Assembly (NCBI GenBank): GCA_963976765.1 | Contig: CAXBME010000001.1 | Span: forward strand, 186,001 to 250,000 | Source: an uncultured Planctomycetaceae bacterium | Lineage (GTDB): Bacteria > Planctomycetota > Planctomycetia > Planctomycetales > Planctomycetaceae | Length of the DNA stretch: 64,000 nt | Reading direction: 5' to 3' | Part shown: positions 24,301-63,282 of the stretch, in pieces | Layout of the letters: every line of letters begins with the position of its first letter | How positions within the stretch are numbered: the first letter of the stretch is position 1 | Program-made: the position numbers and the translations under genes | Notes under the pieces: model-generated | What the model saw: the letters and a program-made list of their open reading frames with translations, nothing else | Told to the model about the DNA's origin: nothing | Database searches by the model: none

Positions 24301-27300
24301 CGTCGGTGATAAAGACGGTGCTGGTGTTCGAAGTGAAGGTCTGGTTATTCTCTCTGGAACAGAAATTACTGGAAACTCGGCAGGCGGAAACGGTGGTGCA
24401 GTTTATACGGCAAGTGCTGCATCGACGACAGCGCTCTCCACCAATGTGAGCTTAACGGCCACCACTGTTTCAGTTGCAAACGCAGCTGCACTCGGCACGA
24501 CGGTTCCCGGGTTTGTGATTCTGGTTGGCAGTGAGCAGATGCTGGTGACGAATATTGCTGGTAATATTCTCACTGTCGTTCGTGGGGCGAACTCCTCAGC
24601 CCCAATCGCTCATACGGCGAATACCCCAGTTTCGTTGCTGCACTTGTCCATTTCTGGTTCCTCACTGACAAATAACTCCGCTGACTTTGGAGCAGGTGTC
24701 TTTGTCGATGACGGAACTGCGGCAATCGTCGGGAGCTCTCTGCAAAGCAATACGGCAGCAATTGATGGTGGAGCTGTTTATGTTGATCAGGCTGCGAGTG
24801 TTGATGTCGCCGGCAGTTCTGTTCGAAATAATTCAGCTGGTCGCGACGGCGGAGGATTCTACAACAACGCGACTGCCACTATTGTGATCACGGATGCGAC
24901 AGTCACTGGAAACAGTGCTGTACGTGATGGTGGTGGCTTGTTTAATGAAATCGTTGCAACAGCGACTTTGTCTAACGCAAGGTTCTCTGCAAACTCCGCT
25001 ACGAACGGGGGTGGCATTTATAATCAGGATGGCGTCGTCACGGTCAACGGTGGGTCGTTGATTGCCAATATGGCCACAGAGGATGGTGGTGGCGTCTTTA
25101 CGTCTTCGAGTGCTACGACGACGCTTACGAATACGACTTTGTCAGGCAATACTGCTGTGCTTGATGGTGGTGGCGTTCGAAACGACGGTTCGATGACGGT
25201 GAATTCGGTGAACTTTGCAGGGAACGCAGCAGGGCGGGATGGTGGAGCGATTCACAATGATCGAACGCTGACCGTAACCCAGTCGATGTTTACCGGTAAC
25301 ACGGCTGTCGGGAGCGGTGGGGCACTGGATCTGAATTCGATCGGAGTGGTGTCGCTGACGTCGTCGACTCTCCGGGGTAATACGGCAACAGTGAACGGGG
25401 GGGCTATTTCGAATAACGGCGCGTCTCGACTGACGCTTTCAGAAATGACAGTCGATGGCAACCAGGCAACTGGCAATGGTGGTGGTCTCTTTCACAGTTC
25501 TTCCGTCGTCGCAACTGTTTCCATGACGACGATTTCGAACAACAGTGCTGCTAATGGCGGTGGTGTGAGCAGTGCAGGGCCGATCAATCTGACGAACGCG
25601 ACTATCAGTAGCAATGTTGCTAGCGCTGATGGTGGCGGCTTGCACAACACATCAACGGCGACACTGCTGGGAGTTACCATTGCGAATAACATGGCGACTG
25701 GAAGTGGTGGGGGTATTTCAAGCAATAACGCTGGCGGAAATGCGTCTCTGAAAAACACACTTGTTGCTCGAAACACTGCCTCGACCAATGCAGACGTCAA
25801 CGGGACCGCATTTCTAAATCAAGGTAACAATCTGATCGGCGACGCTGGTTCGGTGACGACTTTTGTCAACGGGGTAAGCGGTAACCTGGTCGGTGCGACA
25901 GGAACTGAGATTGACCCGCTGCTGAGTTCATTGAAAGACAACGGCGGAGCAACTCTGACGCATGCACTGCTGTTCGGGAGTCCCGCACGCGACAACGGTA
26001 ACAATGTGGGGGTGCCTGCGTTCGATCAGCGAGGGTTTGATCGAAGGTTTGATGGCGATGGCGACGGAAATGTGACCGTCGATATCGGGGCATTCGAGTC
26101 GGGCCTTACCGTCAACAGTTTCCTGGATACTGTCGACGTCAACCCGGGGGAACGCTCCAGCGCTGACGATGCTGGCAACAGCACTCTTCGAGCTGCCATT
26201 ATGGAAGCAAATGCCCTGCCTGGCGCTGACACGATTGTGCTTCTGCCGGGAACGTACCGATTGACAATTGCTGGGCAGGATGAGAATGATGCTCGAAGTG
26301 GTGACCTCGACATTACCGAGTCTCTGACGATCATTGGTGCAGGGGATGGTTCAACGATCATTGATGCTGCAGGGCTGGACCGAGCTTTCCATATTATCGC
26401 GGGGGCATCGCTGGACCTGAAAGGTGTCACGATTATCAACGGTAATGCGACGCTCGGGGGGGCTGTTTTGAATCAGGGCACGTTCTCGACGGAGAATGTC
26501 ACGATTTCAGGCAGTTCGGCAGTGCTCGGTGGAGCCATTTATAACGACATCGTCGAAGATGAGCTGGTAGCCAACATCACTGCCGGAGCGGGGACACTGC
26601 GAGTTGAGGACGTCTCTGTGTTTCCTCGACAGGCGGGGTTCGTCATTCAGATCGGAACCGAGCAACTGCGAGTTGATTCCATCTCGGGTAATACATTTAC
26701 GGTGACCCGAGGGGTCAATTCGACGACGGCGACGGCTCATACTGCCGGGGATGTCGTCACCGTTGTGGCGACTTCGGTTGTTTCGCTGGTCAATACGAGG
26801 GTTACTGGCAACTCAGCGTTGTTGAACGGTGGTGGCATTTTCAATAACGACACAGTCAATATTACGCTGAGTTCTGTGAACGGAAATACTGCCGGAGTTC
26901 GTGGCGGTGGTCTCTATAACACACAGACTGCCACTTTGGATCGAGCTACGTTTGACGGCAACAGGGCTGAGGTTCGAGGTGGGGCGATTTTCAATGAGGG
27001 GACGACTTTGTCGTCGCCATCGACGGTGTCTGTGAATGCGTCGACTCTATCGAATAACGTATCGGGAGCACGCGGTGGTGCCATTTTCAACTCGCAGACA
27101 CTGACACTTTTGAACTCGACAATTTCGTCGAACGTCGCTGGTGGTGAAGGTGGTGGGATCTTCAACACTGGACCAGATGGAGCAAGTTCCGGGACAACCA
27201 CGATTGTTAACTCGACGATTGCTGAAAACTCATCGGATATTTCGGCGGGGGGAATTTTCAATAACACCGGCAGTGTAGTTCTGCTGACGAATTCAATTGT

Positions 27301-30300
27301 TGCAGGCAATGAAGCTCAGGCATCGAATAATGATGTTCAGGGGGCGTTCAGTTCGGTTCGTACTAACTTTATTGGCGATGCAGGGACTTCGACCGGGTTA
27401 GTGAATGGCCAGAATGGGAATCTGGTTGGTACGACGCTAAGTCCCATCGATCCGGTCCTGGGAGTACTGGCCAGTAACGGTGGTCCGACGCAGACTCATG
27501 AACTGCTGATTGGAAGCCCTGCGATTGACGTGGGCGACAACTCTGGCGGGGAGACAGTGGACCAGCGTGGCGGTCGACGACCGACTGATCAGTCAGCTGA
27601 TATTGGAGCCTTCGAAGTTCAGGCAAATAATCTTTCGATCGACAATGTGTCGATGAATGAGGGCTCGTCCGGTTCGACACTGTTTGTCTTCACGGTTCTG
27701 CTTGAGTCAGTAGCTGCTGATCCGGTAACGGTGTCCTATGGGACGGTGCAGAATACTGCTCAGCAGGGAAGTGACTTTATCGGAACCGCCGGGACGCTGG
27801 TATTTGCTCCAGGTGAACTCTCAAAAACAATCACCGTAGAAGTGAACGGCGATACGACAACGGAATCGACAGAGCAGTTTTTCGTGCAGCTGTTCAATCC
27901 GGTGAATGCTTTGCTGAGCAATGACCGCGGTACGGGAACGATTCTTAATGACGATGCAGTCGTGACCTTCGCAGACGTCAATATCGTCGAAGGCGATTCG
28001 GGGACCAGTACGGCAACATTCAATGTTGTACTGTCGAATCCGACGAGTGCAGACATCACGCTTGGCTATCAGACGTCGGCGGGCACTGCGACTGAAGGTT
28101 CGGCTGCACTGGGGGGAGATTACGTCGAAGCGAGCGGCACTCTGACTTTCCTGGCAGGTGAGACTTCGAAATCGTTTACCGTGACGATCAATGGTGATAC
28201 GGATGTCGAGGCTTTTGAAACAATCTTTGCTGATTTGACATTGGTTTCGGGGTCCGTTCAGCTTCCGGATTCGCAGGCGATCGGCACGATTCAGAACGAC
28301 GACATTGAGTTTGCGGATATCAGCAGCCCGTCGGTGACGGAATTGACTGGTTCAAACAACACTGTCAGCTTCACGATCGCGATGACTCAAGTTAACGCGT
28401 TCGATGTAACGGTCCAGGTGCAGACAGTTGATGGTACGGCGACAGCTGGTAATGACTATATTGCGTTGCCGCCGACGACGGTGACGATCCCTGCGGGAAT
28501 GCTGTCCGTCACTCAGGATGTCACGATTATCGGTGATACTGACTTTGAAGGCGGTGCCACAGGTACTCCTGAGACGTTTAATCTTGAGTACGTTGCCAGC
28601 ACGATCACACGTGATGGAGTGACGTCTTCCGGGACGCTTGGTAATGCAGGGACGGCGAGCATCACCGATGACGAGCTGCCTCCGACCGTCTGGGTGATTC
28701 GTGTGACCGGTGCGGGGACGCAAGGTGAGCTGCTTCGTGACGGAACTGACGACGGAGTATTCAATCCGTTGTTCGTTCGGAACTTTGCTCTGACGGCTAA
28801 CGCCGAAACGGTGAACGGAGACCCTGGAACGCAGAATGACCGATTCATCGTCGACTTTGTAAATGGTAATCCGATTCCCGATGGCGGGTTGTTGATTGAT
28901 GGTGGCGACGAAACTTCAGGGGACTCATTGGAGATCGTCGACAGCGATCTGGTGACACCATTTGTCTTTGACAGCGTTGTTTACACTTCGACCGGCGTGG
29001 ATTCTGGGACTGTCCTGATTATGGATGGTGCCATTACGCCGCTGACTCGAACAATTACTTATGCGGAACTCGAACCAGTCCTTGATACGGTTGCTGCCGC
29101 CAATCGAACATTCACGATCAACTCTGTTGCCAACCCGGGTGATCATGTGATTGATGTTGCCAACGCTGGCGGTCGAACGATTATTTCTGACAATGGGACG
29201 AGTGCCTTTGAGAGTGTTGAGTTTGCTAATCCTACGACTTCGCTGACACTGAATGCGGGCGATGGTAACAACACAATCACCGTTGGGGCGTTGGATGCTG
29301 GCTTTGCGGCTTCCTTCACAATCAACGCCGAAGACGGTGACGACGATCTCGACGCAACGGCAACGAGCATCGCTCTTTCGATTGTCGGTGGTGGCGGTGG
29401 AGATACCCTTCTCGGGGGAACTCTGGATGACACGATCGACGGCGGACTCGGGAACGACAATATTGACGGTGGTGCCGGGAACGACTCCCTGGCGGGCGGA
29501 GCTGACGACGACACGGTGAGCGGTGGAGCCGGTACTGACTCGATCGATGGCGGAGCTGGTAATGACTCAGTTCTGGGTGGAGCTGACAACGACACGCTGA
29601 TAGGTGGCGATGACGACGACACCATCCTGGGCGAAGACGGCAATGACAGCATCTTCGGTGGAAACGGGTCGGACAATCTGGATGGCGGAGCTGGCAACGA
29701 CACAATCGTCGGTGAAGATGGCGGAGACAGCATCGTGGGCGGTTCTGGTCAGGACTCGCTCGACGGCGGCGGAGATGCTGACACGGTCGATGGCGGTGCA
29801 GATAACGACACCGTCCTCGGCGGAAGCGGCACGGACATCGTTGCAGGCGGTGACGGTGATGACTCGGTCGACGGTGGTGCCGACAACGACACTCTTTCGG
29901 GCGGCGGCGGGACTGACACGCTGGTTGGTGGTTCCGGAGATGACCAGGTGGCGGAAGTCGCGGTCGATGCTGAATCGATTATCCTGACCGATACGACCCT
30001 GACTGTCGGCGGACTGGCTGATTCAATCAGCGGAGTCGAAGAGTTCATTCTGACCGGTGGAGACCTGAGTTCTCTGATTGATGCGAGTGCTTACACGCTG
30101 GGTAATGTGACGCTCAATGGTGCCGGTGGCGATGACACTCTGATCGGCAGCAACGGTGATGACTTCATCAATGGCGGAGGCGGTAACGATACGTTGTCCG
30201 GTGGTCTGGGCAATGACTCAATGCTTGGTGGAGCCGGCAATGACGTGATCGACGGTGGGTCCGCCAATGACACGCTGGCCGGCAACTCTGGAAACGACAC

Positions 30301-47380: not shown

Positions 47381-50300
47381 ATGAGTCTGCCGAACCGAAG
47401 CCTCTTTGACATTGAGACTCCAGCGCCCCGAGCGAGGGGCAATTTTGGCCTGGGGCGGTTTCTGTTTCGACGCAGCCGGGCTTCGCGTCGGCGAGGGATG
47501 AGCCGTCACACTGATCGCCAGGCTGTCGCTGCGGTGGGTGAGCGATCAGAGTGCCTTGAGAATCGGTTGATGCTGACCCAGTTTATTGTGGACACGAATC
47601 TAGATGTTGTGAACGGCTCTGATGGGCTGACGAGTCTGCGTGAAGCGATCACAGCAGCCAACAGTAATGCAGGTGCGGATACCATTGATTTTACAGGTAC
47701 CTTTGGGGCGTTCGAGCCAATCGTACTGAGCCTCGGTGAGCTGACGATTACTGAAGGGCTGACGATCAACGGTTCAACGGCGTTCAGTCTTTCAGTGGAG
47801 GTCGATGGGGATGATCTTTCTCGCGTCTTCAACATTGATACGACGGATGCTGTGACTTTCATCGGGGTCGATGTCACCGGCGGGGCTGCAGTTGACGGGG
47901 CAGGCATCTTCAACAACGGCAGTGATCTGACTTATCAGTTCGGAATGATTTCGAATAACAATGCGACTGGAAGCGGCGGCGGAATCTTTAATGCGGCAGG
48001 AACGGTTTCGATCGAGCAGTCGAACATTAACGACAACACCGCTGTCCGAGCTGGCGGTGGAATCGAAGATCAGTCGAATGACGCCAACGCAATTACATTC
48101 ACCAACGGCAATTTGAATGGCAACTCCGCTACAGGTGGTGTCGCCGGGCCGGGTAACGGTGGCGGCCTGCATGTGACCGGTTCGGGGAACGTGACGATCA
48201 CAAATGTCAGCGTCACGGGTAACACAGCCGCCAGCGAAGGTGGCGGGCTGTGGAACGGCACTGGCACGATGACGATCAGCGATACGTCGGGGAACGTGCT
48301 GATCGACGGTAACACGGCCAGTGGTAATGACGCCAATAACGGCGGCGGCGGTATCTTCAATGCTGGCGGAACGGTGCTGATTCAGGACAACGACCCCACC
48401 AACACGATCACGATTTCCAACAACATCGCAGACGGAACATCAGGCAGTGGCGGCGGAATCCTGAACGACGCTGGCGGAACGCTGACGGTCACCGGAGCGA
48501 CGATCTCCGGGAACGCGGCCAACCGTGCGGGCGGCGGGATCGAGAGCACGGCGGGAACGACCAACACACTCACCAGCGTCACGTTGATTGATAACGTTGC
48601 CGGCCGGGCGGGCTCGGCGTCGCCCGGCAACGGTGGTGGACTGCATATCACAGGTAACGGCAATGCTGACATCATGGGAGGGTCAGTGACCGGGAACTTC
48701 GCAGCCTCCGAAGGCGGTGGCTTGTGGAACGGTACCGGGACAATGACCATCGACGGGACGATGATCACCGGCAATGCCGCGGCGGGTAATGGCGCCGATC
48801 AGGGCGGCGGCGGCGTGTTCAATGCAGGCGGTACGCTCGACATCGACAACGCCACGATCAGCAACAACCTGGCCGCAGCGGCGATCACGTTCTCGCTGGA
48901 TGGGAATCAGGTAGTGCCTCCGGTCTCGACCTCGGCTTCTGGCAGCGCGATTGCACAGCTCGATCCGGCGACCGGCACGTTCCGACTGGATCTGTTCGTG
49001 ACAGGAATGGAACTGCCGACAAATCCGGGTGGTCTTCCAGATTTGACGATGGCCAACGTCCATCTGGGGGCTGCTGGAGTCAATGGCCCGGTGATTTTCG
49101 ACCTGCTGGCCCTCGGTTCGTTCGTCCAGGAGGACAATGGACTTCGTTTGATACTGGACGGCGAAGTGTTTCCTGAGGACAGTCTGGCCGATCTTCTGGC
49201 TGGGAACACGTATGTCAACATCCAAAGCGACGACAATATGTCCGGTGAGATCCGCGGCCAGATTATTGTTCCGTCCACGATGGGCAGCGGCGGCGGTATT
49301 CTGAACGACCAGGGAACGCTCACCGTCGATAACTCGACCATTGATGGCAACATCGCCAGCCGAGCTGGCGGCGGTATCGAAACGAACGTCGGCACGACAA
49401 CACTGACGAACGTGACTTTGAGTAACAACGTCGCCGGTCCCGACGGAGCGGCAACACCAGGCAACGGCGGCGGTTTGCACGTCACCGGAGCCGGCGGTGT
49501 GACGATTAATGGCGGAATGGTCACCGGAAACACAGCTGCTGCAGAAGGTGGTGGTTTGTGGAACTCAAGCACCGGCACGATGACGATTCAGGCCGGCGGT
49601 ATGGGCGGGACGCTGATCGACAGCAACACGGCCAACGGTGACGGGGCCGTTCAGGGCGGCGGCGGCATCTTCAATGTGGGCGGCACACTGTCGATCACCG
49701 ACGCAACGATCAGCAACAACGTCTCGACGGCAACGCAGGCCGGTAACGGCGGCGGCGGAATTCTGATCGAAGGCGGAGCGAACAACTCGATCACCGACAC
49801 GACGATCAGCGGCAACACGGCCAACACGTCTGGAACGGCTGACGGCGGAGGAATTCTGCTGACTGGTGGTTCGACTCTGACGATCAGCGGCGGCACGATC
49901 AGCGGCAACAGTGCCAACCGGGCTGGTGGCGGCATCGAGAACAACGCTTCGACCGTCACTTTGACGGATGTCACGCTTGGCGGAGTGATGGTTGCTGACG
50001 GTAACAACGCCGGAGTCAATGGCGGCGGTCTGCATGTCAGCGGAGCGGGCACGACGAACGTCAATGGCGGCACGGTTCAGAACAACGTCGCTGGCCAGGA
50101 AGGTGGCGGTCTGTGGAACGCGACTGGCACGATGACGATCGACGGAACGACGATCAGTGGCAACTCGGCGAACGCCGGCAACAACGGTGGAAATGATCAG
50201 GGCGGCGGCGGTGTGTTCAACATCGGCGGAACGCTGGACATCGACAACGCCACGATCACTGGCAACTTCGCCACCGTGAATGCCGGTAACGGCGGTGGCG

Positions 50301-53300
50301 TGATGACTGTCGGCGGAACGGTCACGATCGACGATTCGACGATCAGCGGAAACAGCGTGGCCCGAGCTGGCGGCGGCATCGAAAACAACAACGGTATGCT
50401 GACGCTGACCGGTGTGATTGTTGGTGGCACGATGGTGTCAGACGGCAACAGTGCTGGAGTCAACGGCGGTGGTCTGCACGTCACGGGAAGCGGAACAACG
50501 AACGTCAACGGCGGTGCCTTCGAGCTAAACACGGCAGCCCAGGAAGGCGGCGGCTTGTGGAACGGTACCGGCACGATGACCATTGACGGAGTGGCTATTC
50601 TTCAGAACGTTGCCAGCGGTAATGGCGCGGACCAGGGCGGCGGCGGCGTGTTCAACGCCGGTGGCGAGGTCATCATCCAGAACGGTACGACGATTTCCAG
50701 GAACGTGGCCAACGGCACATCGGGCAGTGGTGGCGGGATCCTGAATGACGCTGGCGGCACACTGACTGTCTCTGACAGCACGATCGAACTGAACACTGCA
50801 AATCGAGCTGGCGGCGGGATCGAAGATAATTCTGGTCAATTCTCGGTTGTTGAGCTGACGAACGTCACTCTCGACGGCAACAGTGCCGGTGTTGATATCG
50901 GTGTGGTAGTGATGGCTGCTCCCGGAAATGGCGGCGGTCTGCATGTGACTGGTGCTGGAGTCGTCAATATCTTTGACGGTACGGTCAACAATAATGTGGC
51001 GGCAGCCGAAGGCGGCGGACTGTGGAACAACACCGGGCAGATGGACGTTGTCGGTACGACGATCAGTGGTAACACAGCATTCGGTACCGGTGTCGACGAA
51101 GGTGGTGGCGGTATCTTCAACAAAGGCGGGGATTTGGATGTTCAGTCGGCAACGCTCAGCGGCAACACTGCGACCAGCGGATTTGGTGCTGCAATCTTCA
51201 ACGAAGGCGGAACGGTCGCCATCGGCATGACGACGCTTGACGGCGACGTTGCTGGCGGTGACCTGACCGACGACACGTTCGATATTTTCGAAACCAGCGT
51301 CACGATCATCAGTCAGGGAGGTTCTGACACGACGATCGTCTCCGGTGACGCCACCGATGATTCGTTCGTCGTCACGCCAGACACGGCTGGTCTGGGCGCC
51401 ACAGTGACGGTTCAGAACGGCTCGGCCTTCACCATCAACACCGATTCGGAAACGCTGAATCTGCTCGGCGATATCGGCGACGATGATTTTACCGTCGATT
51501 TCGGCAACGCAGTGACGCTGGGTACGGTCACGAATCTCTCCATTGGTGGTGCAGGTGAAACTTCAGCCGACTCGCTGACACTCACAGGCACTGGCTCGTT
51601 TGTGGATGTCACGCAGACGACGACTACGGCAGTCGACGGAAGCTTCAGTCTTAACACTGATAAGATCGTGGTCGACTACAGCAGCATCGAAAGCATCATC
51701 AACAATCTGCTGGAAGGGCTGAGCCTGGCTCAGACTCCAGATCAGGTGATCGGTGCTGGAGCTGGCTCGGTAGATATTCTGATTGCGTCGAGCACGGACG
51801 ATAGTGAGATTCCGGTTCTGACCGTCGGGGCACTGCCAGACTACGCTTCATTCGTTGATAACGGCAACGGGACCGGAGTTCTGACACTGAATCCGGCAAC
51901 CGGCGATGCCTCGACGAATGCAGACATCACGGTCACGGCAACAATCGCCGGCCTGTCTGCTTCGGACACGTTCAACGTGGCTGTCGTCAGCCCGGCTCAG
52001 GCATTCCCGAATAACACGATTTTTGCCGTTAACTCAGCTGGTGGTGCCGTCGGCAACTTCTCGTCCGACAGCAACTTCAACACCGGTTCGACGTTCAGCA
52101 CCGGGGCAGCGATTGATGTCAGCGATTCATCGATCCCCAGCGGTACACCCGCAGGAATCTTCAAGACGACACGTTTTGACTTCAACGGCGGCTCAGAACT
52201 TCAGTACGCCTTCCCGACCGGTGTCGGTAATTTCGAAGTGACTCTGTTCTTTGCCGAAATCTACTCGCCAGTGTTCCGTGCAGGTGGTCGAGTCTTCGAC
52301 GTCAGCATTGAAGGTGTGCTGGAACTTGACGACTTCGATGTCTTCGCTCAGGCCGGAGCCGGCAACAAGGGGATCGCCCGAACCTTCCAGGTCGTCTCGG
52401 ACGGCACGCTTAACATTGACTTCGGACACGTTGTCGAAAACCCAATGGTCATGGGAATTCAGATCGTTGATCTGAATCCGGTTGCCAACGCAGGGCCTCA
52501 GGTTGCATCGGTAGCTCCTGTGGTCAACCTGCTGTCAGGCAATTCGACCACGATCGACGTCAGTGCGACAGACCTGGAAGGTGATTCGATCGCGTTGTCG
52601 GTCACCGGTCTGCCAGAGTTCGCCTCGTTCGTGGACAATGGCAACGGAACAGGAACGATCACAGTTTCGTCGGCTGCGACTGACGAAGGCTTGTTTGGTG
52701 TCACGGTGCAGGCGACATCCGGCACACCAGCTTTGACCGACTCAGCCTCGTTCACGCTGAGTGTCGCACCGTTCGTTCCTCAGCCACTTCCACAGGAAGT
52801 GATCAACATCAACGCTGGCGGCCCGGCACTGCCCGGCGATCCTGGATTCGTGCGGGATGACAACTTCCAGAACGGAGTCGGGCTCGACTTCGGCACGGGA
52901 GCAACGATCGATACCAGCGATGCTTCGATTCCATCGGGAACTCCGGCACAGCTTTTCAATACGGTGACCTTCGATCGTGCTGGCGGAGCGGAACTTCAAC
53001 TCGACATTCCGACTCAGCACACGGGGATTGCTTACGAAGTGACCTTGTACTTTGTCGAAATCTACGGGCCGACCGCTCGTACCGGTGCCCGCGTCTTTGA
53101 TGTCAGCATTGATGGACAGCTTGTCCTGGACAACTTCGACGTCTTCGCCGCCGCCGGGGCGATCAATCGAGGGATCGCCAGAACCTTCCAGATTACGAGC
53201 GATGGAAATGTCGACATCGACTTCGGACACGTGACTGAGAACCCAGCACTCGCTGGTGTCTCGGTCCGTCAGATCGATCAGGTCTTCTCGTCAGCTCCGT

Positions 53301-53302
53301 AA
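47381..53302 (+). CDS. Large (1973 aa) extracellular protein: LExRxLL leader, CSLREA-like cap, 6 beta-helix repeats, inserted CHRD domain, 2x (Ig-like + malectin)
   Basis: ECLENRLML; TSLREAI; NGGGLH(V/I) x6; CHRD signature (QVVPPV.TSASG...H.G.AG.NGPV...YVNI...GEIRGQ); malectin signature (L.F.EIY...RVFDVSI.G...FDV) x2. Confidence 0.92.
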   Translation: MSLPNRSLFDIETPAPRARGNFGLGRFLFRRSRASRRRGMSRHTDRQAVAAVGERSECLENRLMLTQFIVDTNLDVVNGSDGLTSLREAITAANSNAGADTIDFTGTFGAFEPIVLSLGELTITEGLTINGSTAFSLSVEVDGDDLSRVFNIDTTDAVTFIGVDVTGGAAVDGAGIFNNGSDLTYQFGMISNNNATGSGGGIFNAAGTVSIEQSNINDNTAVRAGGGIEDQSNDANAITFTNGNLNGNSATGGVAGPGNGGGLHVTGSGNVTITNVSVTGNTAASEGGGLWNGTGTMTISDTSGNVLIDGNTASGNDANNGGGGIFNAGGTVLIQDNDPTNTITISNNIADGTSGSGGGILNDAGGTLTVTGATISGNAANRAGGGIESTAGTTNTLTSVTLIDNVAGRAGSASPGNGGGLHITGNGNADIMGGSVTGNFAASEGGGLWNGTGTMTIDGTMITGNAAAGNGADQGGGGVFNAGGTLDIDNATISNNLAAAAITFSLDGNQVVPPVSTSASGSAIAQLDPATGTFRLDLFVTGMELPTNPGGLPDLTMANVHLGAAGVNGPVIFDLLALGSFVQEDNGLRLILDGEVFPEDSLADLLAGNTYVNIQSDDNMSGEIRGQIIVPSTMGSGGGILNDQGTLTVDNSTIDGNIASRAGGGIETNVGTTTLTNVTLSNNVAGPDGAATPGNGGGLHVTGAGGVTINGGMVTGNTAAAEGGGLWNSSTGTMTIQAGGMGGTLIDSNTANGDGAVQGGGGIFNVGGTLSITDATISNNVSTATQAGNGGGGILIEGGANNSITDTTISGNTANTSGTADGGGILLTGGSTLTISGGTISGNSANRAGGGIENNASTVTLTDVTLGGVMVADGNNAGVNGGGLHVSGAGTTNVNGGTVQNNVAGQEGGGLWNATGTMTIDGTTISGNSANAGNNGGNDQGGGGVFNIGGTLDIDNATITGNFATVNAGNGGGVMTVGGTVTIDDSTISGNSVARAGGGIENNNGMLTLTGVIVGGTMVSDGNSAGVNGGGLHVTGSGTTNVNGGAFELNTAAQEGGGLWNGTGTMTIDGVAILQNVASGNGADQGGGGVFNAGGEVIIQNGTTISRNVANGTSGSGGGILNDAGGTLTVSDSTIELNTANRAGGGIEDNSGQFSVVELTNVTLDGNSAGVDIGVVVMAAPGNGGGLHVTGAGVVNIFDGTVNNNVAAAEGGGLWNNTGQMDVVGTTISGNTAFGTGVDEGGGGIFNKGGDLDVQSATLSGNTATSGFGAAIFNEGGTVAIGMTTLDGDVAGGDLTDDTFDIFETSVTIISQGGSDTTIVSGDATDDSFVVTPDTAGLGATVTVQNGSAFTINTDSETLNLLGDIGDDDFTVDFGNAVTLGTVTNLSIGGAGETSADSLTLTGTGSFVDVTQTTTTAVDGSFSLNTDKIVVDYSSIESIINNLLEGLSLAQTPDQVIGAGAGSVDILIASSTDDSEIPVLTVGALPDYASFVDNGNGTGVLTLNPATGDASTNADITVTATIAGLSASDTFNVAVVSPAQAFPNNTIFAVNSAGGAVGNFSSDSNFNTGSTFSTGAAIDVSDSSIPSGTPAGIFKTTRFDFNGGSELQYAFPTGVGNFEVTLFFAEIYSPVFRAGGRVFDVSIEGVLELDDFDVFAQAGAGNKGIARTFQVVSDGTLNIDFGHVVENPMVMGIQIVDLNPVANAGPQVASVAPVVNLLSGNSTTIDVSATDLEGDSIALSVTGLPEFASFVDNGNGTGTITVSSAATDEGLFGVTVQATSGTPALTDSASFTLSVAPFVPQPLPQEVININAGGPALPGDPGFVRDDNFQNGVGLDFGTGATIDTSDASIPSGTPAQLFNTVTFDRAGGAELQLDIPTQHTGIAYEVTLYFVEIYGPTARTGARVFDVSIDGQLVLDNFDVFAAAGAINRGIARTFQITSDGNVDIDFGHVTENPALAGVSVRQIDQVFSSAP

Positions 53303-53469: not shown

Positions 53470-56400
53470 TCACGCGTCCTTCAATCGCTCGTCGCGCAGA
53501 CGGAGCACGGCTTCTTTGGTGAAGTCCTGGCTGTCGAACACCAACTGCGTGACGCGTTTGCCTTTGCTTTTCCGTTTTGCCGACCGAATCGCCTTCGTCG
53601 CGTTGATGAAACGTGTGCGACCATCGCTACTGCGGATAATCAACAGTGTTTCCGGCATGCCCTTCGCCGTCCAGTATTCCTCGTAGTGCTTTTTCATCGG
53701 GAATTTTTCGATTCCACTCTTCAGCACTTTGAGGTGTGAGTCACCAGACTTCAGTTGAACGCGGTACGCGACTCCGGTCGCTTTGGCATTGTCATTGCGA
53801 AACTCGATCTCGCCGTCCACTCCTTCGTCGGGTTCCGACACAATCCGATAAATCTGCCCGACAGAGGCGACCAGACTCATAACCTCTCCCACCATCTGTT
53901 GTTCCATCGACGCGTTTGAAATCCGCTCGCTCGCATTTCGCTTTGCTTCATTAACGCTCTGCACGGCTCTGGCACTCATCTGTCGTTCGAGAGCATCCTT
54001 CAGATTCATCATCCCCGGCTCTTTGTCGGGAGGACAGAATCCACAGCGAAGCTTTGGCCAGCCATTTTCAATCGCATGGTCAACCTGCTCGCGGGGCGCC
54101 TCGCGTTTGCACTTCGGACAAAAGTAGTCGCGCAACCGTTGCAGTCCGTCGGCCTTTCGTTCCAGGTGCTCCCATGCGAATTTGTGGATTGTGGCCTGCA
54201 CGTCTTGAGACATCTTCGCGTCGAAGTACAGTTCCAGCTCTCCGCGGTCGCCCTCTTCGACCAGCGTCAGCGCCGCCAGTCGGCCCTCGTGAGTCTTGAA
54301 ATCCACGCCGCGTCGATACAGCCTCGGTTCCGAAGTGAACAACCCGCTGTAGTACAGGCGGACGACCAGCGTGCAGTAGATCTCTTCCAGCGGTCCGGTG
54401 AAGCGGAAGGTCACTGTTTTGCCGGGACGAGGCGGAGCTTCCTCTCGCGGGAGCAGCGCGTAGTACGGAAACACCAGCATCGTGCCTTCGTTGGTCTCCT
54501 GCTTCCACGCCAGTGCCCGGCGCAGGAACAATTCGACCAGTGCGGGCAGCAGTTGTTCCTCATCTTCGTGGCTCAGCCGGTCCGTCCCGTCGTCGTTCGG
54601 CAGCTTTCCGGGGGCGATCATCGACATCGGGATGTAGCCGAGCTGATTGTCGGCTTCGGCTGCCAGCTTCACGAGCGTGGACGCGTAGCTGTTGATCCAG
54701 CTCGGCTGCAGAACGACCAGCCTGCCATACGGCAGTTGATACAGCACGCCCTCGGTCCCCAGCAGGTTGGTCACGGCGAGCAGATCGTCTTCCGTAAACT
54801 TCAACTTTGGTGAGGTCTTTTTCACACGGGCCAGCAGTTGCTCAGGCGTTACGATCACGCCACCATCATCTGTCGCGTCATCGCGTAGCGAAAGAATTGC
54901 GTCCTTCAGAGGCGGAAAGGTCTCGGGCGTGCTCCGCCACTCGATGTTTTCCCAGGGCAACAGCTTCGCGATCAACTCACGCAGTTCTTTCACGCCGTTT
55001 TTTGTTTTGAGCTTTGCTTTGGTGATCAGTGGGCCGTGCATTCCTCGTTTTCGAGCCCATTGTTCGACCTCGCCGAGTGTCAACCGCAGGCCCTTCCGGT
55101 CGCAGCGAGCGGCCACCAGAACTCCCTGAACGATCTCTGCGGTGGCCACCTTGCTCAACGCACTCTGCCAGTAACTCACCGTATCAAACAGGTCCTTGTC
55201 CTGCGGATCAAAGACCAGCAAAGCCAGCGAGGTCTGCTCCATGAAAAGCTGATGAGTCAGTCGGTAATCCGGTTGCCCGGCCAGATCCCAGAGCCAGACT
55301 TCGTGTTCGACTTCGGAATCTTCCAGGTCGGATTTCGGCAGGTCCGACAGTCGCTGGATCTCCATTCCGTGAGTCGACTCGGTTTTTTTCCAGCGATCGT
55401 GCCACAGCCGCAGCGCCAGCCCGCTCTTACCCACGCCGGAATCGCCGAGCAGGACGACCTTGGCATTCTTGTAGCCGCGTTTCCGCGACGTCGCCGCCCG
55501 GTCGAGGATCGCCTGGGGAATATCCCAGACGCGGAGAGTATTGCCTTGCCAGTCGACGGAGGCGATGCGGCGGGCGTCAGGAGTGATGGCAACGCCGAGG
55601 ACGTCGTTTGTGTGTCCGCGAAGGATGGCGAGGCACTGGCCGGTCTCCACGCCCCAGAGGCGAACGGTCCTGTCGCCCGACCCGGAAACGCAGAATCGAC
55701 CGTCCGGTGTCACTGCTACGGCGTAGACATCACGACTGTGCCCTTCGAAGGCGGCGACGCGGTTGCCACTTTCGAGATCCCATTGCGCAACCACGCCATC
55801 TTCTGTGCCGGCGAAGGCAAAGCGACCGTTGGCTGTTACGCTGATCTGGCAAGCATCCGACACGTTTTCCTTGGCGATGATGAGTGAAGCGCGGCCTTTT
55901 CCGGACCAGACCACGAGGCCCTCATTGCGGCAGGCCCCGACGATCCGCGAGCCATCGGCGTCAGCGGCAAGACCGTAGCTTTCGGACCAGTTGAACGGCA
56001 ATTGGCAGCTGGCGATGCATGTGTCGTCAGACGCGGCACTAGTATCGTTCCCCTGCCACCGCTGAAGCTTGCGGACATCCCAGCGTCGTAGAAACTCGTC
56101 CGTCCCGATGCTGTGGAGTTCCAACCGATCCTGTCCCTGAGTCTGACGCTGGCGTTCGCCATCTCCGCTGAAGGCCAGACTTCCAACATCCGTTTTGCGC
56201 GAATGAGCCTGTACGATCGTGATGATCGCGTTCGAATCTGGACAAGAATCCGTGTCACCTAGCTTCGGAGGAGCGGTCGCGGCCGACTGCGGGTCCAGCA
56301 ACAGCATCCGGCCCAATCGATCGCCCGCCGCCGCCAACAAGCCATCCGCCGATACGGCCACTCCCCAGAACGCCGTACCATCTTCGGATTTCGCGAGGAC

Positions 56401-56619
56401 CACGCCCGTGTCGACTTCAGCGCCCTGTTCCGACACCAGATCCCACTTCCGAACCGTCCCGTCTTCGCTGGTCGTGAGTGCAAAACGCCCATCCGCTGGC
56501 ATCGCCACGCGCCAGACCCAGTTTTCATGCCCTTTAAACACCCGGACCCGCACGTCCTTTTCCGTGGCGGGTTCCGGCGTTGCTGCCTGGGCTTTGTTGC
56601 TCGATTTCTTCGTGACCAT
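53470..56619 (-). CDS. Roco protein: WD40 repeats - Roc GTPase - COR - Zn ribbon - DUF4365 (restriction-endonuclease-like) domain
   Basis: GH...WD repeats; G1 GDSGVGKS, G2 STHG, G3 WDLAGQ, G4-like ARCD; CPKC/CGFC; DEGVDGEIE...VQLKSG. Confidence 0.88.
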   Translation of the reverse strand: MVTKKSSNKAQAATPEPATEKDVRVRVFKGHENWVWRVAMPADGRFALTTSEDGTVRKWDLVSEQGAEVDTGVVLAKSEDGTAFWGVAVSADGLLAAAGDRLGRMLLLDPQSAATAPPKLGDTDSCPDSNAIITIVQAHSRKTDVGSLAFSGDGERQRQTQGQDRLELHSIGTDEFLRRWDVRKLQRWQGNDTSAASDDTCIASCQLPFNWSESYGLAADADGSRIVGACRNEGLVVWSGKGRASLIIAKENVSDACQISVTANGRFAFAGTEDGVVAQWDLESGNRVAAFEGHSRDVYAVAVTPDGRFCVSGSGDRTVRLWGVETGQCLAILRGHTNDVLGVAITPDARRIASVDWQGNTLRVWDIPQAILDRAATSRKRGYKNAKVVLLGDSGVGKSGLALRLWHDRWKKTESTHGMEIQRLSDLPKSDLEDSEVEHEVWLWDLAGQPDYRLTHQLFMEQTSLALLVFDPQDKDLFDTVSYWQSALSKVATAEIVQGVLVAARCDRKGLRLTLGEVEQWARKRGMHGPLITKAKLKTKNGVKELRELIAKLLPWENIEWRSTPETFPPLKDAILSLRDDATDDGGVIVTPEQLLARVKKTSPKLKFTEDDLLAVTNLLGTEGVLYQLPYGRLVVLQPSWINSYASTLVKLAAEADNQLGYIPMSMIAPGKLPNDDGTDRLSHEDEEQLLPALVELFLRRALAWKQETNEGTMLVFPYYALLPREEAPPRPGKTVTFRFTGPLEEIYCTLVVRLYYSGLFTSEPRLYRRGVDFKTHEGRLAALTLVEEGDRGELELYFDAKMSQDVQATIHKFAWEHLERKADGLQRLRDYFCPKCKREAPREQVDHAIENGWPKLRCGFCPPDKEPGMMNLKDALERQMSARAVQSVNEAKRNASERISNASMEQQMVGEVMSLVASVGQIYRIVSEPDEGVDGEIEFRNDNAKATGVAYRVQLKSGDSHLKVLKSGIEKFPMKKHYEEYWTAKGMPETLLIIRSSDGRTRFINATKAIRSAKRKSKGKRVTQLVFDSQDFTKEAVLRLRDERLKDA

Positions 56620-58871: not shown

Positions 58872-59015
58872 GGTGTGATCAGCTTTCGAATACAGACCTT
58901 CGAGATATCCAAACAGGCAAACTAAGCAGAATCATAATCAGATTCACAATCCCGAGTCACAGCCTGGCGGGATTGCTCAGTGTCAAACAAGCAACATCAG
59001 GGCAAAGGTTCCCGG

Positions 59016-60940
59016 TCACCTGCCAGCAAGGGCCTGCTCACGCCAGCGCCGCACGCTCATGACATCAAATCGCTTGCCGACAAACTCAATTTGCCTCACC
59101 TGTTTCGTGCCGTTGCCTGTGACTTCTTTGAGATGGTCGCGTATCTCCATCCAGCGAATCTCACCTTTTGAGTTTCGGATGACAAGGATCACGGGGAAAG
59201 CCTGATCCATCCAGAAGCGCACCTGTCTCTGGTCAAAACTCTTAAAGATTTCTGCCCCGTCCGTCTTCCGAACGGTCAGGTACGAGTCCCCGGATTTCAG
59301 TTGCAGATGCACTTTCTGGCCAGTGGCTTCACCAGCGTCGTCGCGAAACGTGACGTCCATGTCGATGCCCTGATCGGCCTGTGTTATTTCCTGACAGAGC
59401 TGTGCGGCCAGCGCAACCGTTGAGGTGACTTCTCCGACAAGAACACGTTCCTTGCTGGTATTGTCGAGCACGATTCTGACCGAGTCCTGAAGATCCTGCA
59501 CTCGCTGCTTGATGGCCGGATCGGCAAAGAGTTCTTCCAGCTCGTCCCACAGAGGAATCCGTTTTTCAGAATCGTCGCATTCGACGCAGGGGATGTCTTT
59601 CTTTCCCTCGTTCAGCTTCCGCATTGCGACCTGTCGATTCCCCACCGGCGTCCCGCAATGCGGACAGACGTAATGCCGCAGGCGGACGACGTCGTTGGCA
59701 CCGTAAAGGAGGTGCTCGTGGACGTACTTGCTGAAGATGATCCGCTTGCCAACGGGGACGTCCTGACAAAAGTACACTTCCAGTTCGCCCTCGCCTTCGG
59801 CACGCCGAGTCAGCTTGACTCCAAGTTGTCGCCCCTCGTGCGTCGTGAAGTCGGCGGCGTATCGCCAGAGTTCGTCATGGTTGAACTCTTTCGTGTGATG
59901 CAGTTTGACGACCAGCGTGGCGTAGACTTCATCGAGGAATCCATTGAACTGGTAGCTGACCACCACAGCCGGTGCGCTGATCAATTCTGGGCGCTCCCGC
60001 CGGTAATAGCTGGGGAAGATCAGCAGGATCTCGCCAGACTCGGTCATGTGTCGGATACACAGACCTCGTTCGACGAGAATCTGATGCATGGCCAGCAGCA
60101 CAAACTGTTCTTCATCGGGCGGGAGCCGCTCAATCGACGAATGATACGTGAGGTCTCCCCGCAATACTCGCTTTTCCGAAATGCAGCCACGGTCGTGTTC
60201 ATCCTCCCTGATCGTCTGAATCACCGCCTGACCGTACGCATTGATCCGTTCCGGCTGAAGCAGCACCCAGCTTCCAAATTCAAGTTCCCAGACAACTCCC
60301 GGTCCCGCCAGCAGCCCGACCACCGCCTTCAGCTCCGCATCGGTGAAACGCTCATGTGAGCCGACGGCGCCAGGCGCGGGCCTGCCAGTGTGGACGTCCT
60401 CTCCGCTATCGCCCGAGGCTAGCGCCTGCGGCTCACGATTACTCATCCGCAGCGCCAGCACTTCGCGCAGCTCATTGAACCGCATCAGCACGCGGCCTTC
60501 GTCCTTCAGCTTGATGATCTCATCTTTCAGCCGTTTGAAGAGCACTGGCGAGCTTCGCCACGGAATGTTCTCCCACTTGATCCCGTCAATGATGGCCTGC
60601 CTGAGCTCCGCACACCCCTCATTCGCCTTAGCGCTGGTTTCGACATACGCCTCATAGCCACGTTCATCAACAAAATCGTCGATCTGCTTTCGAGCTACGC
60701 GCAGCCCGCCGGCATCGCAGCGCCCGGCGACCAGCAGCTTAGACATTTTGTCCTTGTCATCTTTGCCTTTGCCGGCCCGGCTGAGATCGCGGTCCCACTG
60801 CCCCAGCGTCTCGAAGACATCGTCCTTCTGCGGATCGAAGACCAGCGCTGCCACCTGTGTCTGATCCATGTAGAGCTGATGAATCAGCCGCTGATCGGCT
60901 TGCATCCCTGAGTCCCACTTGCCCACGCCTGTGGATCCAC
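59016..60940 (-). pseudogene. 5'-truncated, internally deleted Roc-COR-Zn ribbon-DUF4365 paralog (frame still open; could be expressed from an internal ATG)
   Basis: GSTGVGK abuts WDSGMQADQRLIHQL directly; ETSAK, CPHC/CVEC, DQGIDMD...LQLKSG; colinear with the C-terminal part of 53470-56619. Confidence 0.7.
60356..60436. repeat. 81-bp REP-like palindrome inside the coding frame
   Basis: gtgagccgacggcgccaggcgcgggc vs gcccgaggctagcgcctgcggctcac (21/26 complementary). Confidence 0.85.
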
Positions 60941-61074
60941 GCGAGTGGCTGTAGCGGAATTCTCCATAGCGCAGATTTCTGACGGCCGACTTGGTGGCGC
61001 GACACGCAACTGTCGTAAGCCGATTCCTCGCAATCGATAATTGCATCGAGACTGCCGTAGGTGCTTGATTGTCG

Positions 61075-62625
61075 TCAGGAATAATCACCAGTATACGGCA
61101 GAGCAATCGCCCGAGATTTTCCGTACGAAATAATGTCGTCATATGTGAAGAGCTTCGCTGGTCCCATCTGCTTCTCAATCTCGATCCGATCTTCGCGATG
61201 CGTCACCTCTTCCGTGCGTCCAATCACGACGATCATCTCTGGGCGAAATGCCTGAAATCCGTGTTCGGCCATAAACGCTTTTCGATGGGCCGCGTTATCG
61301 AAGTAATGCTCATACTTCCTGAGCTGCGCAACGGCCTTCGTGATCTCGCTTGAGACTCGGAGATATGGGTGCCTCGCCGTGATGCGAGCATTCGGCAACT
61401 TCAGGTCCAAAATGTCGAATCCCAGGCCACCAGGACGTTCCAGAATAAAGTCCGGAATCAGCTCTGAATTATCTTCATCTCGAAGGCAGATATGAGGGTG
61501 AGCCCGTGCGTATCCGAGTGATTCGAGGAATTCAGGGTGTTGATTCAAGAAACTTTGAATATGACGTTCCCTCGTCGAGTCTCGCGAAATCAGGTCCTCG
61601 AATGCTGCAATCGTCGTAATCGGCAGCATCGAAGTTGGACGAATCGCTTGAAGTGAGATTGGCTGGTGGCCATACCGTGTTGTAGGAGTCTGCACGGTTA
61701 CAGTATCCCGGTACGTGTACTGCCCGAGATGTACTCTGCCGTCACGCGCGAACAATGCGACGCCCGGTAAGTCTCGCTCAGGTGAAACTACGGATGCGAG
61801 ATCTAGGCAGGAATCGACGAACTTCACGTTACCACCCGCTTGGGCAAATATTGCCGGGCCAAAAAGTAGTGGGCTGCAACGATTAAGAACTTGGACACAT
61901 AGTTCGGGAGGGTCAGTCAATATCCTTCGCTTCGTGAACCAGCAGTTGACAGCGGCAAGCGCGAACTCAAGTTCGGCGATTGAAATGTCCGGGTAATCGA
62001 TCCCAAATCGTCGATCAATGGCGTAATCTTCGGCTTTGGAGATCTCGGTCCGTCTTGATCGAAGCATTCTTAGCAACTCACCGGCGGAGTCAAGTTCAGG
62101 GTGCATCGTGGATACCAAATAGACGATGAGTTCGCACATGCCATTGGCCAATTCTTCGTCAAGACGGCCATTCGGCGGTGGACCGGCGATTAATTCGTGC
62201 GGAAACACCAATTCACTTGGGACGCGATCACGATCTTGCGGCGAGATCGCCGCACGAAGCAGATCTGCGGTCTCAATCGTACGACTGGTTCCGGAAATTT
62301 CGTGCCAAAACGTCGACGATTCTTCAAAGAGTGAATCAAACGGATTCAACTCTTCGAATCGCAATGGCGACCCAACGCTCTCCCTTGCCAGTCGCCTAAG
62401 CTCCTTTGGATGACGTGATGATTTCTCAAGAACATCAACCGTATACGAGCCAGAATAAAGAAGCCCGATTAGGAGTGAGTCGGTATCACCGACGATGTCT
62501 GACGGAGAACGTGCGATTGATTCAGTCAGAGACGACAATGCCTGCGGAGTGGCGGTAAGCCCGTGGAGGCCAAGTTCCACTGATAGCTTCTTGCTCAAGG
62601 TGTGTTTTGTCAGTTGGTTTTCCAT
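61075..62625 (-). CDS. Shedu-like (SduA/DUF4263) anti-phage nuclease with a Clp-N-like N-terminal region
   Basis: ERHIQSFLNQHPEFL, IPDF, LDLKLP, SSEITKAVAQLRKY, VVIGR, TYDDI. Confidence 0.8.
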   Translation of the reverse strand: MENQLTKHTLSKKLSVELGLHGLTATPQALSSLTESIARSPSDIVGDTDSLLIGLLYSGSYTVDVLEKSSRHPKELRRLARESVGSPLRFEELNPFDSLFEESSTFWHEISGTSRTIETADLLRAAISPQDRDRVPSELVFPHELIAGPPPNGRLDEELANGMCELIVYLVSTMHPELDSAGELLRMLRSRRTEISKAEDYAIDRRFGIDYPDISIAELEFALAAVNCWFTKRRILTDPPELCVQVLNRCSPLLFGPAIFAQAGGNVKFVDSCLDLASVVSPERDLPGVALFARDGRVHLGQYTYRDTVTVQTPTTRYGHQPISLQAIRPTSMLPITTIAAFEDLISRDSTRERHIQSFLNQHPEFLESLGYARAHPHICLRDEDNSELIPDFILERPGGLGFDILDLKLPNARITARHPYLRVSSEITKAVAQLRKYEHYFDNAAHRKAFMAEHGFQAFRPEMIVVIGRTEEVTHREDRIEIEKQMGPAKLFTYDDIISYGKSRAIALPYTGDYS

Positions 62626-62695
62626 TCTCTGTCGCTCAGTTCTGCGTAGGTTCTGCGAATGTATGAATTGTGAATTATGCGAAGGGCAACTCAGG

Positions 62696-63064
62696 TCAGT
62701 CGAATTTGAATTCCGACGGATGAGTCGTCTTGTTTTTCAGTACGTCGTCGAGCCTGAGTGGAATGAATCGTCGGTTGTGGTTGAGTGGATCTTTGAAGCG
62801 GAAGGTGTGGCTCTCCAACTGCGGCCAGTCGGCCGCGAGCGCCTCAGCGGACAGGCAGAGCACCAGCACGCGGGAGTGCTCCAGTCCGTCCTCGATCTTC
62901 GCCGGGATGCTGTCGCCCGGCTGGATCTCCCACTCATCAAACCACACCCGCACCCCGTCCGACTTCAGCCGGTTCGCGATGTCTCGGACAGTGTCTTTGT
63001 CTTTCGAGCTATGACTGAGGAAGACGTCCCACTGGAATTCGGAATCGGCAGAAGCATTGCTCAT
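62696..63064 (-). CDS. TIR_2 domain, apparently C-terminally truncated
   Basis: DVFLSHSSKDK, VWFDEWEI.PGDSI, W.QLE, RRFIPLRLDD, then a 15-aa tail that does not look TIR-like. Confidence 0.85.
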   Translation of the reverse strand: MSNASADSEFQWDVFLSHSSKDKDTVRDIANRLKSDGVRVWFDEWEIQPGDSIPAKIEDGLEHSRVLVLCLSAEALAADWPQLESHTFRFKDPLNHNRRFIPLRLDDVLKNKTTHPSEFKFD

Positions 63065-63069
63065 AAGCG

Positions 63070-63171
63070 GGCCACGAAAAAGCACGAAGAGGCACACAAA
63101 AAGAAGGGGACCGACGGACAGTGTAGAGACTCGTCCCTGACTATTGCGACTTCTCGTGCCTTCTTGTGGCC
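63070..63171. repeat. Imperfect inverted repeat of GCCAC/GCAC(G)AA units directly upstream of the TIR gene
   Basis: ggccacgaaaaagcacgaagag vs cttctcgtgccttcttgtggcc. Confidence 0.75.
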
Positions 63172-63282
63172 ATTCTTTGTTCGACTGGCGAGATTCGCAG
63201 AGTCCGGGTGGGCGAGGTTGAACGCCATCTCGAAGTTGAGTAAACCAACGGCTTGGCGCAGGTTGACGCAGTCAATCTGTCA

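Follow-up and report, generated by a model that had tools for sequence, protein, structure and literature searches.

The N-terminal domains of Shedu nucleases have been sorted into the named classes 1A-1G plus 1X (10.1101/2023.08.10.552793), and proteins of the architecture TIR+BetaPropeller+AP-GTPase are listed among the Roc+COR counter-invader proteins in Figure 6-source data 1 of PMC8195603. In the accessible text of 10.1101/2024.01.29.577857, guilt-by-embedding relies on defence genes nested between intact genes, pseudogenes being excluded. Homology-facilitated illegitimate recombination, as described in the available sections of PMC3240628, couples an insertion to a deletion of similar size and is very rare in E. 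coli conjugation. Here we set beside these systems a locus of an uncultured Planctomycetaceae bacterium (genome of 8.57 Mb, 56% GC). A marine metagenome record (L017) matches without difference over the 10,982 bases compared, and close homologues that carry a name are from Planctomycetota. The locus lies in a stretch of 64,000 nucleotides, positions 186001-250000 of contig 1, hereafter called the window; a Shedu-family nuclease gene appears there in the middle of a former TIR-WD40-Roc-COR-DUF4365 gene.

The best explanation, in which we place fairly good confidence, is that foreign DNA carrying the Shedu gene replaced the middle of the parent gene, likely by homology-anchored capture, and that the Shedu nuclease is predicted to act alone. 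The parent gene resembles the TIR+BetaPropeller+AP-GTPase entries of PMC8195603 in architecture and length (~1,100-1,200 aa); unlike those intact proteins, the window locus keeps only the two ends, with cargo between them. As in the guilt-by-embedding cases described in 10.1101/2024.01.29.577857, a defence gene is nested in a defence locus and the occupants vary. Here, however, the guest sits inside one gene and destroys it, instead of standing between intact members of a multi-gene system.

Two ends of one parent gene

The preliminary description of the window had reported three minus-strand frames and read the outer two as pieces of a split gene. The frames are there, as sequence and Pfam confirm: a TIR frame (62696..63064, 122 aa), a Shedu-like gene (61075..62625, 516 aa) and an open Roc-COR-DUF4365 frame (59016..60917), all on the minus strand. 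The test proposed for a split also came out in its favour: the TIR and Roc-COR-DUF4365 frames align to opposite ends of the same TIR-WD40-Roc-COR-DUF4365 proteins. Of the 120 best-ranking homologues obtained with the Roc frame in a search restricted to lengths 376-1199, 82 also match TIR and not one matches the Shedu protein; 82 are at least 1,040 aa long, and a P-loop is present in 109. Judged by sequence comparison, the pieces are therefore two ends of one gene whose middle was replaced, and the locus reads as the remnant of a TIR+beta-propeller+AP-GTPase (Roco) family member.

The nearest intact protein, P0146 (1,173 aa), shares a 90% cluster with the Roc stub: identity is 89% in TIR and 89-96% in the remaining regions, COR and DUF4365 both reaching 96%. 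A contig of the intact type from run X7 connects window positions 62746 and 60918 via ~1.35 kb of other sequence. About 437 codons (~1.3 kb) were lost, namely the TIR C-terminus, the WD40 propeller and the first half of Roc including the P-loop, against 1.8 kb of lower-GC DNA gained. The earlier proposal that a defence gene took the place of the WD40 section thus holds for the Shedu gene but was too narrow about the loss, which extends into both flanking domains. No single polypeptide joins TIR, propeller, Roc, COR and effector: a stop ends the TIR frame at 62696, and a propeller remnant was found in none of the six frames.

The TIR stub matches TIR_2 with 95 bits over profile positions 1-93 of 122. 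Residues 1-107 derive from the parent gene's 5' end, and the final 15 are read-through into the insert; the family match stops after IPLRLDD, just where the frame had been said to break off, and the joint lies at 62746. The conserved Glu84 is present and ~29 C-terminal profile positions are absent. In the 60 bp past this 5' junction, the trace of a decayed TIR linker is borderline (61 of 2,000 shuffles).

The second stub consists of the C-terminal half of Roc, COR, a zinc ribbon and DUF4365 (Pfam Ras/Roc partial; DUF4365 73 bits), with possible start codons at 60905 and 60869. That it has no N-terminal repeats was seen correctly, but the loss is wider: the match to relatives begins at the G3 motif (60917), itself altered from WDFGGQ to WDSGMQ, and both P-loop and switch I are gone, so that no complete Roc GTPase (P-loop, switch I, DxxG) is left. 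COR and the C-terminal DUF4365 nuclease are both there, the latter retaining its D...QxK motif, whose spacing resembles that of D41/Q60/K62 in SPARDA as given in the accessible part of 10.1101/2023.06.08.544223.

A TIR that has lost its last strand and two helices is expected to be inactive, and so is a GTPase without a P-loop. Since these elements were lost, both stubs are probably crippled, though undecayed. Compared with two relatives, the Roc stub has 21 private substitutions, of which one falls at the 317 conserved columns out of 574, where ~11 would be expected under relaxed constraint; on this basis the split would be either recent or followed by continued selection on the stub, and we consider a recent replacement likely.

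Directly before the altered G3 motif, an in-frame GSTGVGK occurs at window 60918-60940, a P-loop pattern given by 0.7% of shuffles. As a P-loop remnant it was rejected: it is unlike the P-loop DNA of six relatives or of the paralogue described below (88-227 of 300 shuffles do as well). The stretch has no profile match, and two further loci compared yielded no P-loop.

Roco proteins dimerise through COR, and the window holds a possible partner: a distant, intact WD40-Roc-COR-DUF4365 paralogue without TIR (53470..56619, minus strand, by Pfam), 33% identical to the Roc stub. An expressed stub, with COR and nuclease intact and preceded by a start codon, could pair with it as a nucleotide-free regulator or an additional nuclease subunit. 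We regard this as very improbable, given the low identity, the internal stop in the orthologue from congener G007 (L052, G007:C494; 87% identical over the available part) and the absence of any match to the paralogue in three congeners that lack the split gene.

In these three congeners (G003, G005, G006) the class II aldolase and sulfatase genes that bound the locus are separated by only ~90 bp, and the lineage-specific block at 58891..63282 (minus strand) is absent; in the other four congeners examined, the two genes do not adjoin or the contig stops. The empty interval in three congeners indicates, at the level of sequence, that the entire 4.3-kb block was acquired by the host lineage. The paralogue lies outside this block.

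Could the arrangement be an assembly chimera? The genome is apparently metagenome-assembled at low depth (~3-5), and no single contig spans the whole block. However, a contig of run X1 (62241-63039) bridges the 5' junction and one of run X2 (60854-61196) the 3' junction, each with zero differences; both runs may be the source sample. The Shedu protein, in addition, is present on five contigs from four sources. A chimera is thus hardly credible.

The inserted stretch and its Shedu-family nuclease

Judged against the X7 contig (joints 60918 and 62746), the foreign stretch measures 1,825 bp (60919..62743, minus strand). It was described as lower in GC, and it is: 51.6% compared with 60.1% in the TIR stub and 57.7% in the Roc stub. 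A value this low occurs in only 2% of 4,646 genome windows, and GC at third codon positions (0.53) places the stretch within the lowest 2.7% of 2,785 long open reading frames (ORFs). Profile searches found no family remnant within the stretch. An insertion sequence (IS) or transposon was considered and rejected: the stretch has one gene, there is no repeat pair at the junctions among the repeats listed, and 1.3 kb of target was lost. Neither junction has a notable hairpin site (z -0.81 and +0.63).

The single gene encodes a Shedu-family nuclease (Pfam SduA_C 48.7 bits, cut-off 27; PADLOC SduA 2e-19) with three parts: a predicted double Clp-N domain with a helical insertion (residues ~20-284), a poorly modelled linker (288-333) and the SduA nuclease (335-505). 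A structure model built from 50 sequences reached a predicted local distance difference test (pLDDT) value of 80.9; an earlier fold search with 18 sequences had been weak. The DUF4263/SduA_C nuclease domain is present, and the top four Foldseek matches are all Shedu. For the C-terminal domain, Foldseek returned 8ps4 with an E-value of 2e-5, and VIA a Z-score of 14.7 to the same structure (182 residues aligned, root-mean-square deviation (rmsd) 4.0). Of 38 full-length rows, 36-38 keep the motif residues E353, D392, D407-x-K409 and Q434; motifs I-IV were assigned by sequence pattern, motif III having D for E.

Residues ~20-284 of the model match 17 N-domains of Clp/Hsp100 type with Z-scores of 7.9-11.7; for helical folds the tool advises caution under 13. 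Despite the low scores, one family fills the match list, with 17 of the 22 top rows in the structure comparison and the top 17 rows in a separate search, and most of each target is aligned. We take the model to predict a double Clp-N helical fold; the region has no Pfam match. In its predicted fold it is like the N-domains of ClpA, ClpB, ClpC, ClpV, ClpT1 and SMAX1 (~125-140 residues aligned, rmsd ~3-4). Unlike in Clp/Hsp100 proteins, the window's Clp-N is fused to a nuclease, has no AAA+ motor and is split by ~120 helical residues.

With type 1 Shedu (E. coli 8PS4, B. cereus 8TI8/8TI9) the protein shares the C-terminal nuclease fold and motif pattern, and an N-terminal domain in the regulatory position. 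It differs from classes 1A-1G, as presented in the parts of 10.1101/2023.08.10.552793 checked, in the predicted double Clp-N with its helical insertion and in the Asp for Glu of motif III. In those parts and in two supplements (PMC10441436) the term 'Clp' is absent; the family could sit within 1X without a name. A keyword search of the literature, with most subscription papers outside its coverage, returned no paper joining Shedu with a Clp N-domain. A Shedu protein with a Clp-N N-terminus, as the model predicts it, we have not found described, and it is the freshest lead of this locus.

With the N-terminal 340 residues as query, 20 matches were obtained, and there are ~30 full-length representatives at 50% clustering; the named members of the subfamily are from Planctomycetota and Desulfobacterales. 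Searches for the full-length subfamily in 400 other genomes of the phylum and in viral contigs, and for the N-terminus in plasmids, found none. A Protein Data Bank sequence search with the Shedu profile gave no match, the ESM Atlas no usable one, and NCBIfam none for P0002 and P0003. In two relatives of the Clp-N type, P0169 and P0172, the nuclease motifs are degenerate, and the C-terminus bears a TIR or a purine nucleoside phosphorylase (PNP) domain. As the nuclease is swapped for TIR or PNP in these proteins, comparison points to the N-terminal part being a sensor module with exchangeable outputs.

Clp N-domains bind substrates, adaptors and phosphoarginine, according to the sections of PMC12583610 consulted. 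The ClpC pocket glutamates E32 and E106 named there appear in the Shedu subfamily as Asp49 (37 of 38) and Ala/Ser120, a correspondence read by eye. With the pocket glutamates seemingly kept only in part, phosphoarginine is a doubtful ligand. In the mechanism that we propose, the Clp-N domain would hold the nuclease off, and binding of a protein cue of infection would switch it on, leading to DNA cleavage; the Shedu nuclease is predicted to be a stand-alone anti-phage enzyme.

Replaced middles across the family

A DNA search of 398 family genomes, with at most two candidates per genome scored, matched 28, own genome included; 39 + 5 regions were mapped onto P0146, and genome G510 matched the palindrome only. 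Nine of the 28 have the two stubs on a single contig, separated by unrelated coding DNA. The slot is occupied by Shedu in the window, GmrSD in L042, TIR-NACHT in L043, TIR-NACHT-FGE in L039, DUF4062-TPR in L038, a SEC-C protein in L044, a TIR fused to an unknown domain in L030, a thiamine-diphosphate enzyme with a further ORF in L027 and an ABC transporter in L035. At L021, from another collection, an IS remnant fills the slot, and one-sided cases, to which L050 and L025 (below) also belong, carry YhcG (L040) or a caspase (L059). Only two family genomes have a full-length colinear copy on one contig (L032, L034), each frameshifted. The adjoining sulfatase gene served as a control: it matched in 83 of 331 genomes, 55 of them with a single colinear match 2,000 nt or more in length, and in none of the 83 was it split around an inserted gene. 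Sequence comparison thus makes a family-wide tendency to such replacements likely.

The locus had been proposed as a swap hotspot with conserved flanks. Other genomes do hold different cargo; the breakpoints are not fixed, some cargo is metabolic, and the hotspot tracks the gene family, not the chromosomal site of the window, which is empty in three congeners. Beyond the family, a search of the phylum found only two other genomes with the Roc family, a 39-nt TIR pattern was not found in 400 other genomes of the class, and TIR and Shedu had no match in viral contigs.

These comparisons bear on whether the three ORFs form one working system, with the TIR and COR-DUF4365 stubs kept as effectors or regulators beside Shedu. 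The ORFs share a strand, both stubs are open and undecayed, and TIR Glu84 and the DUF4365 motif persist; moreover, another undecayed stub of 621 aa exists (P0006, P0149, P0150; nine contigs), and the TIR stubs P0153 and P0155 are cut at the same residue. However, the TIR-Shedu-Roc layout was found nowhere else, no Shedu match occurs in any of the 42 family loci scanned, and the full-length Shedu subfamily is missing from the 400 other phylum genomes mentioned above. Elsewhere the stubs flank other genes, and here the TIR fold is incomplete and the P-loop gone. Joint action, which the preliminary description had offered as an alternative, therefore finds no support, and we judge it quite unlikely. 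In the replacement reading, the stubs would be bystanders, the TIR lacking its C-terminal elements and the GTPase its P-loop.

To locate the breaks, 123 short TIR proteins (120 top-ranking matches of a search plus three) were analysed: 53 run through the linker, 18 have no tail, and in the other 52 the tail is foreign or frameshifted. Setting aside one insertion artefact, these 52 break at positions distributed evenly between 15 and 39, with 9, 10, 8, 7, 8 and 6 per four residues from position 17, and the 3' ends range over P0146 residues 535 to 1111. A fixed recombination site, as in an integron-like cassette, is rejected as a rule on account of these scattered breaks and variable 3' ends. 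Such a site had been suggested by P0153, P0155 and two stubs of L025, whose breaks are no more than two codons away from that in the window, and mild clustering of breakpoints in the closest subclade is possible.

What, then, would move the cargo? Among the 11 full-length relatives listed, identity to P0146 is 18-35% in WD40, 66-89% in TIR and 68-85% in the C-terminal half of Roc. We infer that the conserved TIR and Roc-COR arms, which normally flank the far more variable propeller, would act as recombination anchors, and that an illegitimate second end would trap whatever the donor carried. At L039 and L043 an in-frame TIR-NACHT gene precedes scraps of Roc or DUF4365, which fits TIR as an anchor; both could also be true genes in their own right. 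As regards DNA uptake by the host, its genome has one ComEC-family gene, but so do 10 of 14 control genomes. As in homology-facilitated illegitimate recombination (in the sections of PMC3240628 available), loss and gain are of similar size, without a transposase and with variable ends; unlike there, anchor, donor and microhomology are here a matter of inference.

The main competitor is ordinary decay, in which a dispensable gene in a variable region breaks and unrelated DNA enters the broken copies by random illegitimate recombination, with no bias towards capture. The even spread of breakpoints would suit it, as would copies broken by plain deletion, frameshift or IS (L062, L037, L032, L041, L026, L021) and cargo such as the thiamine-diphosphate enzyme and the ABC transporter. 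But it accounts poorly for a gain of 0.85-1.74 times the loss in nine of ten loci, for the three TIR pieces alternating with small gene pairs at L025, and for the control gene being split in no genome. We give decay a minor, though real, share of the probability.

Several observations nevertheless weigh against replacement by anchored capture. The sizes of loss and gain correlate non-significantly (rho 0.33, p 0.18, n 10). WD40 identity tracks Roc identity over all pairs (Spearman 0.66), so that propeller divergence may reflect fast evolution, not swapping. No donor sequence was found, hence neither anchor nor microhomology is demonstrated. Four of the nine cargoes are of defence type, two are metabolic and three unassigned, and for L042-L044 no intact parent was seen (TIR 49-53%, 3' piece 36-37% identical to P0146). 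Intact copies are undercounted, since eight loci run off contig ends and two candidates were scored per genome, and the sulfatase, being metabolic and not a dispensable immune gene, is a lenient control. Finally, the undecayed Roc stub, with its one private change at conserved columns, is compatible with ongoing selection too.

Taking replacement by capture one step further, we tentatively suggest that TIR-propeller-Roc-COR-nuclease genes are intragenic capture platforms, whose arms would swap sensors and trap defence genes, and that the captured gene founds a protein-sensing Clp-N class of Shedu. Known defence hotspots are intergenic, whereas the variable slot described here is internal to a single immune-type gene. 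If the suggestion is true, that slot supplies new defence candidates. Searching between TIR and Roc-COR-DUF4365 stubs would be an easy means of listing such candidates in a phylum that has received little study, and operons that seem to consist of 'TIR + X + DUF4365' should be taken for remnants rather than for novel three-gene systems. Nucleic acid is the presumed ligand of most named Shedu sensors; Clp-N would detect a phage protein or protein damage and unleash the nuclease, or the TIR or PNP effector in relatives, giving a protein trigger that is testable with one gene.

Minor features and further family loci

An imperfect inverted repeat is seen in the sequence upstream of the TIR start (63070..63171, no strand), which we presume to be REP-like. 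The palindrome reported earlier exists, but it folds no better than chance (z -1.47; 18 of 200 shuffles equally good) and has a single copy in the genome. A possible sigma-70-type promoter of the Shedu gene (62674..62703, minus strand, 9 of 12 matches) is at chance level, with three sites found against 2.3 expected.

In the Roc stub, a palindromic in-frame insert in a COR loop (60356..60436, an inverted repeat without strand) predates the split, as the same peptide occurs in intact P0146; a 79% copy lies at G000:C1:302338-302415. In-frame inserts recur at two loops of the family, after the Roc QWKLPL motif and in the COR loop, and P0146, P0007, P0008, P0010, P0011 and P0035 have inserts in the Roc switch region. 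The own genome has eight matches to tyrosine transposases of IS200/REP type; such genes stand beside family scraps in L030 and probably L056.

At L050:1-2640 (G023:C123), a low-GC pair of a histidine kinase and a receiver-CAP12/Pycsar TIR gene (PADLOC PDC-S35) comes directly before a Roc stub, which, like the window's, reads WDS and not WDF at G3. The alternation at L025:125-2140 (G023:C232, minus strand) involves three TIR 5' pieces and small gene pairs: an addiction-module protein with ParE, then 73-aa and 91-aa ORFs that have no library match and are presumably HicAB-like. TIR pieces 1 and 2 end on the same base and have some derived changes in common; piece 3 is cut by an apparent IS end. 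L043 and L046, from one genus, both place the TIR piece after an anthranilate-synthase-like gene and end at a PEP-carboxykinase-like gene (names given by eye); with differing genes between the same neighbours, a fixed chromosomal slot is possible there.

The own genome has a second broken family copy (L062, G000:C34:53889-55176), with TIR out of frame with the second half of COR and DUF4365 and no cargo, and another Roco gene (L063, G000:C16:54768-57629) in the order WD40-Roc-COR-TIR. Elsewhere in the window, very large ORFs with beta-helix repeats lie at 12350-31696 (6,448 aa) and 47381-53302 (1,973 aa), the second also having CHRD and malectin domains.

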